From Catajapyx aquilonaris (lineage: Eukaryota): a DNA stretch of 33,045 bases. A program made the translations under genes and the position numbers. The notes beneath the pieces were generated by a model that saw only the letters and a list, made by a program, of their open reading frames with translations, searched no databases and was not told the DNA's origin. The DNA lies in NCBI GenBank assembly GCA_000934665.2, contig KZ539137.1, forward strand, positions 1 through 33,045, read 5' to 3'. Positions 3,632 through 16,210 of this stretch are shown piece after piece (the stretch's first letter is position 1; the number at the start of each line of letters is the position of its first letter).

Positions 3632-4447
3632 ACTCATTCTGCCCCAACCCCTCCCTCTAGAGACCAACCTACGGTTCCTCCAGGTGATACAAAAGATCTC
3701 GCCAACCCCCGTCCTCATAACTGCTGCTACTGCACCCGTGCCTTCTCTCGCCGTGTAGAACTTCATCGCCACGAGCGCACCCACACTGGAGAAAGGCCAT
3801 TCCAATGTGAAGAATGTGGAACCACCTTCTCACAGAAATCGAACCTACAGTGGCACAAGCGCTCACTCCACTCAGATGAACGACCCTTTGTTTGTATGCT
3901 ATGTGATAAAAGTTTCAAGAGGAAGGAAATGCTACGTTATCATACCATGAGTGCTCACACCAATGAGAGGCCTTTCAAGTGTAGCCTTTGTGGTGCTACT
4001 TTTGTTTACCCATGGCATTACAAAAAGCACCTTCAAATTCACACTGGAGAAAAGCCTCATGAATGTGAGGTTTGTGGGAAAGCCTTTGCATGTAGACAAA
4101 ATCGAAATGCTCATAGATTTATTCACTCTGAAAAGAAGCCTTATGAGTGCAGGGTATGTGGTCAAAGTTTTATGCGGAAGGCTGCTCTGTACATCCACAT
4201 GCAAAACGAAGAGCATGTTGAGGATATCATAGTTGTCAATCAGCTGCAATTTCCACCTACTGATGTAGTTACAAGTGAAGTAGGGGATAGCCTTATAGGG
4301 AAGGATATGGTTGATCAAGACCTTAATGATGAAGATGCATCTGCAGTGAGGGATATTTTGCAGGATAGAGTTCCAGATCTGGCAGCTTTGGTTGAGGAGA
4401 GCCAAGTTGAAGTTGTGTTGGTCCAACCAAACAATGAAAGTTTGTAA
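3632..4447 (+). CDS. C2H2 zinc-finger protein, terminal coding exon (six fingers plus acidic tail)
   Basis: Strong acceptor CCCTTTTTTTCAG at 3631. Open phase-0 frame THSAPTPP...RPHNCCYCTRAFSRRVELHRHERTHTGERPFQCEECG... continuous with ORF 3896-4447. TGEKP-type linkers; AATAAA at 4495-4500. Confidence 0.9.
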   Translation, partial: THSAPTPPSRDQPTVPPGDTKDLANPRPHNCCYCTRAFSRRVELHRHERTHTGERPFQCEECGTTFSQKSNLQWHKRSLHSDERPFVCMLCDKSFKRKEMLRYHTMSAHTNERPFKCSLCGATFVYPWHYKKHLQIHTGEKPHECEVCGKAFACRQNRNAHRFIHSEKKPYECRVCGQSFMRKAALYIHMQNEEHVEDIIVVNQLQFPPTDVVTSEVGDSLIGKDMVDQDLNDEDASAVRDILQDRVPDLAALVEESQVEVVLVQPNNESL

Positions 4448-11913: not shown

Positions 11914-12136
11914 ATGGTGAACCATCGCATCTTGCCTGTCTACAGCAAGGTCTTCACGACCCCCCGACGTCCTTATGAAAAGGTTCGTCTTGACCAGGAG
12001 TTAAAGACCATCGGAGAGTTTGGTCTAAGGAACAAGAGGGAAGTCTGGAGGGTCAAGTACACCTTAGCCAAGATCAGGAAGGCGGCCCGAGAGCTGCTTA
12101 CCCTTGACGAGAAGCACCCAAGGCGACTCTTTGAAG
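11914..12136 (+). CDS. RpS9: 40S ribosomal protein S9 (uS4), coding exon 1
   Basis: [31 protein letters not shown]...[11 protein letters not shown]...RLFEG; acceptor TTTCAG at 11906; phase-1 donor G|GTAAGA. Confidence 0.97.
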
Positions 12137-12813
12137 GTAAGATATAGTGTTGGTTTGGAACTGGAGGGATGAATTCAATTACCAGAGTTCTGCTTTGCAA
12201 TTAGCTTTTAGGAGAGCTTGTAATTATTTGTGTCTTCAGTTATATCATCAGGTTTTCATTTCTCTGTAGCAACTGGTCACTAATATTTGCATTAATACTG
12301 GCTGAATTTCTGAGTGTGGTGTGTTTGAAGTTTTTAAAAGCCTCTGAATTCTGCCCTCAATGTGACATGGGGGAAGAACCTGTGTCAGTTCATTCTAGTA
12401 AAATTAGTTTTTAAGTGCCACTTCATATGTCTTTAACTTGCTATATAATTGTCACTTTATATAGCCAGTTGGTCTTCGTTATTTTGGCTTATTCCCAGAC
12501 AAGAAATTTGTTATATCCAAGAACTCGTGGCTGGTTGTATGAATGCAAACTTCCCAAATTCCAAAATTTTATGGGTGTAAAATTGTATGAACTCACTGCT
12601 GTACAAGTATGAGGGGACATTGTCAAATCTAAAGAAATCCCATTTAAATTCATGGCAGGAATTCATGAGGCATTTTCAGAGACAGACCATATTGGTTGTG
12701 AATTTGGTAAACTACTTGTTTTGTCCCCCATGTAAAAGGCATGTGATGAGATCTTTATTTTAGTAGTGGGAAAACATAGCTAGGAAATCAGGGTAATATC
12801 GGCATTTTCCTGT

Positions 12814-12893
12814 GTCCCATGATGAGAACTGAGCTTAATATCCGATACCTCTCAACTGAACAATGGTGTTGAGAAGCCCAGATGCCTGAGGAC
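12814..12893 (+). ncRNA. Box C/D snoRNA candidate, copy 2
   Basis: GTCC/GGAC stem; C box ATGATGA 12819-12825; D box CTGA 12886-12889; differs from copy 1 only at the purine starting C and C'. Confidence 0.8.
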
Positions 12894-12914
12894 TTTATGC
12901 AGTGTCATTGGTAC

Positions 12915-13030
12915 TATCAGTCCAACAAGAATTGTCGCAGCGGCAGCGCACGAACTACAATCTACGAGCACAGGGACACGAGAGACTGTAGTTCGTGCGC
13001 TGCCGCTGCGACAATTCTTGCTGGACAGCA
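12915..13030. mobile_element. Small palindromic MITE
   Basis: ~40-bp arms (GTCCAACAAGAATTGTCGCAGCGGCAGCGCACGAACTACA and its complement); GGTAC on both sides; empty site GGTACAGATAC at ~9938. Confidence 0.85.
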
Positions 13031-13141
13031 GGTACAGATACTTGGTTATATGTAGTCTCAGATTTACATATACGCTTTAGTAGATGTGAGAATGTTGCGC
13101 ACTTTAACTAAAATCATGTCAGAAATTTAAGCTTTCTTCTA

Positions 13142-13929
13142 CGAGGTGCAGTCAAAAATTACTTGCGCGTATTTTTTTTTAGCCATTGCGCATGACATTT
13201 ACATATTTGCACTTCAAGGAACATGAAATCCAGCCCATGTGGGATTTTTTGATAAAGGTTTCAAATTTCGCACTGACCGGACGCCTGTTTCGCAGCCCTG
13301 CAAACAGAGGGCCTTACCGACACTAGCAAAATGGCGGACTTCAGCAAAGCCGATCAGCATGTTGTGGTGCGATTTCTTTTTCATTTTGGACTTTGGACAT
13401 CTTCAGATGATCGTGCATAATGGTATGAACAGAACCATGCGAAATGTTAATGACATTGGCTATAGCGTCCACAGTGCGCCACAGTGATCCGCCTGTCGCC
13501 CATGACAAGTTCCTCCACACGGCTGACAGTGGCGGTCAACGGGCGGCCAGCCCCTGAGGAATGCGTCACACTTGTACGCCCTTCCTTGAACTCCTTCACC
13601 CACCACTGGATCGTCCATAAGGGCATGACGGAGTTCCCACATATGGCCTGCATGTCTTTAAGGATCACAGGAGCACTTTTCTCTTGCAGAAAAAGAAATC
13701 GCACCACAACACGCTGATTGGCTTTGCTGAAGTCAGCCATTTTGCTAGTGTCGGTAAGGCCCTCTGTTTGCAGGGCTGCGAAACAGGCGTCCTGTCAGCG
13801 CGAAATTTGAAACCTTTATCAAAAAATCCCACATGGGCTGGATTTCATGTTCCTTGAAGTGCAAATATGTAAATGTCATGCGCAATGGCTAAAAAAAAAT
13901 ACGCGCAAGTAATTTTTGACTGCACCTCG
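13142..13929 (-). mobile_element. mariner-derived element with 240-bp inverted arms and truncated transposase
   Basis: TA TSD; arms 13142-13381 and 13690-13929. The minus strand from 13740 encodes a mariner N-terminal HTH (QRVVVRFLF...WWVKEFKEGRTSV...GRP), then after a frameshift TVDAIANVINISHGSVHTIMHDHLKMSKV. Confidence 0.92.
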
Positions 13930-13957
13930 TAAAATTCACCAATAATTCTCTCCACAG

Positions 13958-14144
13958 GAAATGCATTGCTGCGTCGCTTGGTTCGTGTGGGTGTTCTGGA
14001 TGAAAACCACATGAAGCTTGATTATGTCTTGGGCCTGAAGATCGAGGACTTTCTGGAGAGACGACTCCAGACCCAGGTGTTCAAACTTGGGCTGGCTAAG
14101 TCCATCCATCATGCTCGAGTGCTAATCCGCCAGCGGCACATCCG
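13958..14144 (+). CDS. RpS9: 40S ribosomal protein S9, coding exon 2
   Basis: (G)[59 protein letters not shown]; acceptor CCACAG at 13957; phase-2 donor CG|GTAATT. Confidence 0.97.
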
Positions 14145-14180
14145 GTAATTAAAGATACCATTTGTATTTTCAAAGTGGTT

Positions 14181-14318
14181 GCCTTGGAATTGGGCAGGAG
14201 GCATCCAACAACATGGATTGCCCTCTAATTCCTCCGAGGCTAGATGAAATTCGCCCTTGGTTAATCCCAGTCGATTTTGCTTACCTATGCTAGACTGGTT
14301 CATGACTCGGGTACATTA
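14181..14318 (+). ncRNA. Box H/ACA snoRNA, dual guide (18S site equivalent to human Psi1643; 28S site equivalent to human Psi3818)
   Basis: Hairpin - H box AGATGA (14242-14247) - hairpin - ACA (14313-14315) + 3 nt. Pocket 1 ATTGG/ATTCCTC matches 18S GAGGAAU-UC-CCAGU. Pocket 2 GTTAATC/TTCATG matches 28S CAUGAA-UG-GAUUAAC. Each 3' pocket strand starts 14 nt before its box. Confidence 0.88.
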
Positions 14319-15122
14319 TAAATTAGGCTTGGAAAGTGGACATCGCCTAGCACTAGGCCCGTGTTAACTTGTCACTTGTAACTGAAAACTAATGGATGAC
14401 ATAATGAACATACAATTTGTCTTGATGTCATGTACATTATTGCTGGCACAGAACGCTTTGCAGTTCTTATGCACCTTGTGCATGAGTAGGTTGCTCATGG
14501 TAATTTAAGTTTGCTAGTAGTTTGGTGATGCGGAACTCCCTTATCACAGCAGGAACCCATTTAAAACCTGCCAGTGGTTTCTTGTAGCAATTAGTTAGCT
14601 TTGATTACTCTTGGAGTCGAGGTGATCTTAGTTTCAAGTTGGTAGTGTCAGCAGACACAATAATTGAGTGGTAATAATTTTTATTTTTTTGCATGGAGAT
14701 GGAGGAATTAGTGGGCGTCAAAGGAGGATAGATCAAATGTTTTTATATGATGTAACTTGTTAACCATGCAAACTTTAACACTTCATTGGCAAGATCACTT
14801 CCAGAAATAGGAAACCAGTGTTTTGGCAGTGTGACTGCTGAAAATGATCATTTTTTTACCATTACGATTAAGTGCAATGTCGACCTGTGACTGCTCCAAT
14901 TAGCCCCAATGTTGCATTAATTATTTGAACAGTTGAGATTTTGAGATGAGTGCTTTTGAAGATGTTTCCCTCTGCAGCTGCAAGTGTCACATTAGCACTG
15001 ACTTGGCAGAATTGCAAATCTCCTTCTCATGCATTTCATTTCATTTTTTTCTTGGCTGGACCATATGGAAGTGCCAAGAACACGATGCAAACATTATGCT
15101 TGCATGAAGCAGGTTGAGACTA

Positions 15123-15670
15123 CAGTAAAACTTCTATAAGTCAAATCTCTATGGGACTGGAAAAAAAACTTCGAGTTCAAGAAGTTTGGATTTTTTAAAG
15201 CACAAACTCTAACAAGGAAGCCTACCTTTATATCCAGCGACGAAAGGTGTTCAAAACTTAAAAATAGCTGTCACTATCATTACAATGTTCCTCATTGTTT
15301 TGTTGTAAAAAAGAACTCCTTTATGGACATTTGTCTACTCTTAGATTCGAGGATTCAATAATCACAATCGAGTCAAACACTTCTTTCAGTACATCTGGTA
15401 GAAGGAGATCAGGAAATTGAGCCTTTCTGTATATGTGGCCTACTTTGGACCCTTCGGCTGGGAAATGAGACTTTTCCGTACTCGCCAACATGAACATCGA
15501 CTTAGGGAGACTGAAAATGCATTGATATCCCATGGTACGGCCCTGCCTGCACTTCGAGTTATAGAAATTCGAGTTAGGGAAGTTTATTTCCTATTATTTT
15601 ACATTGTGACCAACCAAACTCATCATTTTCTTCAACTTATAGAGAACTTCTACTTACAGAAGTTTTACTG
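15123..15670. mobile_element. pogo/Tigger-like MITE (same family as 6139-6726)
   Basis: TA TSD; CAGTAAAACTTCT TIRs; colinear high similarity to 6139-6726. Confidence 0.9.
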
Positions 15671-16038
15671 TATATTCTAGACCTCGGGCCTCTGCAACTA
15701 GAAGGGTTGCAACTACTAGAATTTTTCTGCATCATTCACGTGATCCAACAAGAAATGATTGAATTGTTATGCCATGACATGTATTGCCCGCCATGCAACT
15801 TTGATTCTTAGGCCCAGTTGTATTATTGCAATGCAGAGAATCTCATTGGGTAGGCGTTCACAATCAGATTTCATTTTTAATTTGTGTTGTGAGAGGTTGT
15901 GACCTTTGCCAATTACCCTTTCTGTTGCATGGTAAGAGCTTGAATTGTTTTCATTCTTGACCAATAAGGAAGGAAATTCTCTTAATGCTAATGGCTCGAG
16001 TGATTCCATTTTAAAATTTTGGATCTATCTTGTTTCAG

Positions 16039-16210
16039 TGTAAGGAAGCAGGTCGTGAACGTGCCAAGCTTCATTGTGCGCCTGGACTCCCAAAAGCATA
16101 TTGACTTCTCGCTGCAGTCACCCTTCGGTGGTGGCCGCCCCGGACGCAAGAAGAGGAAGAAGATGCGTCTGGCCACAAGTGGCGGAGCCGCCGATGAGGA
16201 CGACGAGTGA
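16039..16210 (+). CDS. RpS9: 40S ribosomal protein S9, last coding exon
   Basis: [36 protein letters not shown]...DEDDE*; acceptor TTTCAG at 16038; spliced CDS 582 nt = 193 aa; AATAAA at 16230-16235. Confidence 0.97.

Follow-up and report, generated by a model that had tools for sequence, protein, structure and literature searches.

A predicted box H/ACA snoRNA in an RpS9 intron of Catajapyx aquilonaris resembles human SNORA48 and nematode ceN84

Human rRNA is pseudouridine-modified at 18S position 1643 and at 28S positions 3674 and 3797 (the last being Psi-m), which lie in the sequence contexts GAG(m7G)AAU-Psi1643-CCCAGUAAG, GUGAUU-Psi3674-CUGCC(Cm)AGUGC and GCGCAUGAA-Psi-m3797-GGA-Psi-GAACGAG, respectively (Taoka 2018, Table 1 and Supplementary Fig. 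S2). For yeast 25S rRNA, the supplement of Taoka 2016 gives AUU-Psi-CUG at 2189 as the site of snR32 and AA-Psi-G at 2312 as the site of snR86. Human SNORA41 (ACA41; RF00403), located in an intron of EEF1B2, is listed in the supplement of Jorjani 2016 as guiding 18S-1644 by its hairpin 1, a position equal to Psi1643 of Taoka 2018, while hairpin 2 is listed there with no reported target. Human SNORA48 (ACA48; RF00554) has its 3' pocket aimed at 28S-3797, although its function was still described as a prediction in a 2021 paper. No guide for human 28S-3674 is named among the searched rows of the Jorjani 2016 table, nor in usable form in the literature searched. In nematodes, the family ceN84 (RF01655) represents H/ACA RNAs of Caenorhabditis.

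The stretch of DNA analysed here (33,045 nt of Catajapyx aquilonaris; hereafter the window) carries on its plus strand the gene of ribosomal protein RpS9 (uS4), in which Pfam identifies the Ribosomal_S4 and S4 domains. One intron of this gene contains a predicted box H/ACA snoRNA, whose elements are listed in Table 1. The RNA begins 34-36 nt downstream of the intron donor, and inclusion of the UU at 14179-80, which forms part of the alignment to ceN84, brings its length to 140 nt. The exon upstream of the host intron matches the 40S S9 chains of solved ribosomes in the PDB (E 5e-33), and the reading frame crosses the intron by joining CG and T into an arginine codon, followed by VRKQVV. Boxes, hairpins and exon-intron structure thus agree with the claim of an earlier note on this DNA that a canonical H/ACA layout lies 36 nt past the RpS9 donor.

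Table 1. Positions of the predicted snoRNA, its guide elements and neighbouring features in the window
Feature	Position	Strand	Remarks
Predicted box H/ACA snoRNA, 138 nt	14181-14318	+	
5' hairpin	14181-14240	+	lower stem GCCTTGG(A)/(T)CCGAGGC; upper stem 14197-14226
5' pocket, 5' strand ATTGGGCA	14189-14196	+	
5' pocket, 3' strand AATTCCTC	14227-14234	+	
H box AGATGA (ANANNA)	14242-14247	+	in hinge between hairpins
3' hairpin	14253-14312	+	lower stem GCCC/GGGT
3' hairpin, upper stem CCAGTC / GACTGG	14267-72 / 14293-98	+	
3' pocket, 5' strand GTTAATC	14260-14266	+	pairs with 28S GAUUAAC
3' pocket, 3' strand TTCATG	14299-14304	+	pairs with 28S CAUGAA
ACA box	14313-14315	+	adjoins 3' hairpin; followed by TTA (RNA: UUA) to predicted 3' end
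RpS9 coding exon	11914-12136	+	
RpS9 (uS4) coding exon, upstream of host intron	13958-14144	+	translation, Pfam S4 domain, PDB 40S S9 chains
RpS9 host intron, 1894 nt	14145-16038	+	GTAATT...TTTCAG, phase 2
RpS9 coding exon	16039-16210	+	VRKQVV follows the split Arg codon
Box C/D snoRNA candidate	12813-12894	+	preceding RpS9 intron; terminal stem GTCC/GGAC, ATGATGA, internal CTGA, terminal CTGA
Long hairpin	12911-13035		53-nt arms, 89% complementary, 19 nt between
Foldback element	13137-13934		preceding RpS9 intron; 246-nt inverted arms 13137-13382 / 13689-13934, 98% complementary
Open frame, 212 residues	16290-16928	-	convergent with RpS9

The predicted RNA shows the features of the H/ACA class, namely two hairpins, a single-stranded hinge with the ANANNA element and internal-loop pockets. 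Its 138 nt fold with a minimum free energy of -45.7 kcal/mol, against -35.0 +/- 3.8 kcal/mol for 200 dinucleotide shuffles (z -2.78), two of which fold as well as the real sequence. The base paired next to the target uridine is 14 nt from the box in the 3' pocket, where the first T of TTCATG is the 14th base upstream of ACA, and also in the 5' pocket when this is paired with 18S rRNA, while the distance to the H box is 15 nt when the 5' pocket is paired with 28S rRNA. Counting of the bases to the H box and to ACA bears out the proposal that both pockets obey the 14-nt rule, and the guide words quoted with that proposal (ATTGG/ATTCCTC for pocket 1 and GTTAATC/TTCATG for pocket 2) are present in the sequence. 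Each pocket pattern occurs only once in the window.

RpS9 behaves as a snoRNA host, since the intron preceding the host intron bears a box C/D snoRNA candidate, which matches SNORD96 weakly but over its full length, with 27.2 bits against a gathering score of 43 (E 0.0015 for a 131-nt query). On either strand the long hairpin gives a mir-228-like match of about 36 bits; instead of a microRNA, it may represent a small foldback element. The arms of the larger foldback element flank a minus-strand reading frame in which Pfam identifies HTH_48, the domain found in mariner transposases of the Mos1 type, and the element ends 23 nt upstream of the acceptor of its intron. The possibility that the predicted H/ACA RNA belongs to the repeats of this neighbouring intron was rejected, as it lies outside both inverted repeats. 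On the other side of the gene, the minus-strand open frame ends about 80 nt from the RpS9 stop codon and has, by eye, the look of a C-terminal portion of a phosphoinositide phosphatase of the Sac1 type, the type to which the motif CxDCLDRTN belongs. It has no match in Pfam at E<=0.01.

The targets were checked on metagenome rDNA together with human and yeast data. Metagenome contigs fetched with the proposed 18S word provided a sample of 116 loci, of which 13 contain the word in a plain 18S context, and three of these 13 reach and carry the 28S word CATGAATGGATTAAC. In one of these three, L025, Rfam recognises an entire eukaryotic rDNA unit, with 18S, 5.8S and 28S all full-length (18S 1756 bits, 28S 2977 bits). 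The 1467 uridines of L025 were scanned for bipartite pairing with each pocket, where the paired base next to the uridine had to be 14-16 nt from the box and the second arm was free to begin at any place on the 5' side. The three predicted target words in rRNA are GAGGAAUUCCCAGU, GAUUUCUGCCCAGU and CAUGAAUGGAUUAAC. Bipartite complementarity around a uridine is found on L025 rDNA at three sites, all of which are Psi in human, while the two in 28S are also Psi in yeast. A distance of 123 nt separates these two 28S sites in L025, and equally the human (3674/3797) and yeast (2189/2312) ones. When the pocket letters are shuffled, this permissive scan finds an equal or better site in the rRNA for 75 of 150 5' pockets and for 36 of 150 3' pockets, and the pairing score, being not above chance, is therefore not counted as evidence. 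The support comes instead from where the best matches fall, namely on established Psi sites and with the geometry expected of a guide: the leading site of the 3' pocket and both leading sites of the 5' pocket are pseudouridines in human rRNA, with matching sequence context. Pseudouridines occupy about a hundred sites in these rRNAs, or roughly one uridine in fifteen. The case is accordingly a joint one, in which complete architecture and pocket geometry are taken together with the nature of the matched sites and the comparison with known guides.

The 3' pocket has its top site at nucleotide 2691 of the L025 28S rRNA (CATGAA[TG]GATTAAC), with 6+7 Watson-Crick pairs, no G-U pair, a distance of 14 and a score of 13.0, compared with 10.5 for the runner-up. 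This site, CAUGAA[U]GGAUUAAC, is the one proposed for pocket 2 by the earlier note, and equals human Psi-m3797 and the yeast snR86 site. It lies in the helix 71 region of 28S rRNA. The guide strand GTTAATC fits GAUUAAC of the rRNA used here, whereas human SNORA48 has GTTCATC facing GA-Psi-GAAC, and human GGA-Psi-GAAC corresponds to GGATTAAC in the metagenome loci. The single change in the guide (C in human, A here) therefore matches the single change in the rRNA (GAUGAAC/GAUUAAC), which amounts to a compensating guide-target change, and the view that the guide follows the GAUUAAC variant rather than the human one agrees with the metagenome loci and with the human sequence given in Taoka 2018. 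The supplement of Jorjani 2016 assigns 28S-3797 to hairpin 2 of SNORA48, which upholds the SNORA48 function that had been proposed for the 3' pocket. Complementarity and geometry are what point to the guiding of the 28S-3797 uridine by the 3' hairpin.

The 5' pocket has two near-equal best sites, one in 18S and one in 28S rRNA. Register a is on nucleotide 1745 of the L025 18S rRNA, GAGGAAT[TC]CCAGT, with 7+5 pairs including one G-U and a distance of 14, and corresponds to 18S GAGGAAU[U]CCCAGU, the site of human Psi1643; here ATTGG pairs with CCAGU and ATTCCTC with GAGGAAU, while GCA (14194-96) and one A stay unpaired beside the upper stem. Register b is on nucleotide 2568 of the L025 28S rRNA, GATT[TC]TGCCCAGT, with 4+8 pairs including two G-U and a distance of 15, and corresponds to 28S GAUU[U]CUGCCCAGU, the site of human Psi3674 and of yeast snR32; here all eight bases of ATTGGGCA pair with 28S UGCCCAGU and AATT pairs with GAUU. 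The 18S frame proposed for pocket 1 by the earlier note is thus the top L025 match of the 5' pocket and stands, but a second, geometrically cleaner register on the 28S site was missed. The likeness of the guide words to SNORA41 also holds, with ATTGG/ATTCCTC here and ACTGG/ATTCCTC in the human RNA according to the supplement of Jorjani 2016.

The 5' target is ambiguous, and possibly dual. Complementarity, as the top match of the pocket, is what suggests guiding of 18S-1643 by the 5' hairpin, and it is somewhat likely that register a is used, while for register b the same question is evenly balanced. Whichever register is taken as given, the odds that chance alone supplied the additional bases required by the second one are put at about one in a hundred (an estimate, not a computed value), and the use of both is therefore taken seriously, even if such double use appears unlikely. 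Overlapping registers that both fall on conserved pseudouridines would be of modest wider interest, as the 5' pocket would offer a natural case for the tolerance of an unpaired spacer and a short arm by H/ACA RNAs, and bears on how guides switch targets between rRNA sites with the common word CCCAGU.

It is possible, though on the unlikely side, that the 28S site equivalent to human Psi3674 is the sole target of the 5' pocket, as the ceN84 consensus would suggest for that RNA. In this case both uridines guided by the RNA would belong to the large subunit, with 123 nt between them, and complementarity to 18S would simply follow from the AUU[U]C...CCCAGU common to both targets. Register b does begin right beneath the upper stem on either side and fills the pocket 15 nt from the H box, and its 8-bp arm is strong (-12.2 kcal/mol); the other arm, however, the 4-bp AATT/GAUU with its G-U pair, is negligible and has no stability alone (+0.6 kcal/mol), whereas the arms of register a are better balanced energetically (-7.5 and -9.0 kcal/mol). 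The ceN84 consensus of the 5' pocket (CUGGgCA / AAuCC) fits register b and not register a: the 3' strand of this pocket is AAuCCac in ceN84 against AATTCCTC here, and AAuCCac pairs with the GAUU of register b but is unable to pair with the 18S word. The orphan 5' hairpin of human SNORA48 likewise retains CTGGGTA, able to pair with the UGCCCAG beside 28S Psi3674, while its other arm is unfit. Against a 28S-only pocket, the CCTC that completes the 7-bp 18S match, and thereby the SNORA41 word, would be expected by chance in roughly 1 in 100 cases (estimate).

No Rfam family reaches its gathering score over the whole window. A permissive search (E<=10) of 601-, 154- and 81-nt stretches and of each half of the RNA gives two matches of interest, both full-length and weak: ceN84 scores 27.0 bits (E 0.009 for the 154-nt query), and snoR137 of plants scores 25. 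The alignment to ceN84 runs end to end (model positions 1-130 of 130), at a score far below the gathering score of 80. The 5' half alone matches ceN84 (18.8 bits), SNORA49 (11.5) and snoR144 (10.4), and the 3' half alone gives only a 7-bit match to sR30. The models of SNORA41 and SNORA48, against which a search of the hairpins had been proposed, are both unlisted at E<=10 for the whole RNA and for either half. No paper on an RpS9-hosted H/ACA snoRNA or on ceN84 was found in the literature searched; an insect RNA with an equal guide pair may already be described elsewhere.

One of the two origins offered in the earlier note was a fusion or hairpin shuffle, by which a SNORA41-type 5' hairpin was joined to a SNORA48-type 3' hairpin. 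Such an origin is very improbable, for although the two pockets have their guide words in common with hairpin 1 of human SNORA41 and hairpin 2 of human SNORA48, respectively, the 5' hairpin is unlike the SNORA41 model beyond these words, has the 5' half of ceN84 as its best model, and is by eye nearer to the 5' hairpin of SNORA48 itself. Furthermore, ceN84, judged by its consensus, already pairs a similar 5' hairpin with an equal 3' pocket, and shuffling is not needed, since a single old two-hairpin lineage accounts for the hairpin likenesses. That the RNA is non-working, either as a chance H/ACA-like fold or as a decayed, unexpressed copy, is hardly credible, for although no Rfam family is above threshold in the window, the dual-pocket pattern (verified on the window) gives 0 stretches in the metagenome contigs and thus no orthologue, and the pairing scores are matched by many shuffles, the boxes, spacing and two stable hairpins are complete, each of the three uridines with the best match is an established Psi site, the guide tracks the rRNA variant, and the RNA sits in a ribosomal-protein intron adjoining another intron that bears a snoRNA candidate.

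The RNA is an ordinary, previously unlisted H/ACA guide of known type. With good confidence, its sequence identifies it as a probable genuine intron-encoded box H/ACA snoRNA, the arthropod counterpart of the SNORA48/ceN84 lineage hosted in RpS9, and among invertebrates it appears to be what SNORA48 is in human, rather than a new kind of fusion. Most likely, it is a guide that marks two or three conserved rRNA uridines for pseudouridylation. As expected from its class, splicing of the RpS9 pre-mRNA and subsequent trimming by exonucleases would free the snoRNA, which would then be packaged as a stable nucleolar RNA with the complex of dyskerin, Nhp2, Nop10 and Gar1, where the 3' pocket would put the large-subunit uridine of its target into the catalytic site.

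The proposed lineage would be an old two-hairpin one, represented by SNORA48 in vertebrates, by ceN84 in nematodes and by this RNA in an arthropod. Its 3' pocket would have served the 28S-3797-type site throughout, while the original target of the 5' pocket would have been the 28S-3674-type site. The 3' strand of the latter pocket also reads ATTCCTC in the present RNA, completing a full SNORA41-type 18S match. A split of an ancestral multi-target RNA in vertebrates, the other origin offered in the earlier note, would fit the complementary orphan hairpins of SNORA41 (3') and SNORA48 (5'). It is distinctly doubtful, though conceivable, that one 138-nt RNA specifies three conserved Psi by means of a two-register 5' pocket, and is near an ancestral bilaterian state whose functions were divided in vertebrates. 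In that event, after a vertebrate duplication, SNORA41 would have kept the 18S register and lost the 3' pocket, and SNORA48 would have kept the 3' pocket while its 5' pocket decayed.

The results add an unlisted H/ACA guide to the annotation of an arthropod genome, and suggest that the SNORA48-type 3' pocket, entered under 'Vertebrates' in the supplement of Jorjani 2016, has a non-vertebrate counterpart in which the guide follows the rRNA variant. No new mechanism is implied, and H/ACA RNAs commonly connect the modification of the small subunit with that of the large one. A two-target RNA is in itself normal for the class: 89 of the 190 canonical human H/ACA RNAs in Jorjani 2016 are double guides, and guide pairs for 18S and 28S exist, snoRA56 being an example tabulated in a 2018 review.

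Among the known guides, human SNORA41 has guide words equal to those of the 5' pocket here save for one G-U, while its stems and host gene differ. In yeast, the two large-subunit sites are guided by snR86 and snR32, which are two separate RNAs. Besides plant snoR137, ceN84 is the only family of interest with a full-length alignment, and it shares with this RNA the words UUGCC..., UGGGCA, UAAUCCC and UUCAUGA...ACA (8 nt before ACA); the 3' pocket words of its consensus are equal to those found here. Human SNORA48 shares the aim of its 3' pocket and the arrangement TTCATG + 8 nt + ACA. Alignment by eye of the 3' hairpins of SNORA48 and this RNA gives 14 of 16 identical columns on the 5' side and 17 of 21 on the 3' side, and the 5' sides of the 5' hairpins agree in 12 of 17 columns with the common sequence.TGGG.AG..GGCATC, where GGCATC belongs to the upper stem. 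The differences are that the guide of SNORA48 has C where this RNA has A, in line with the rRNA difference, that its host is a SENP3-EIF4A1 intron (supplement of Jorjani 2016) instead of RpS9, and that its hairpin 1 is entered in the same supplement with no reported target, whereas the 5' hairpin here has two good candidates.
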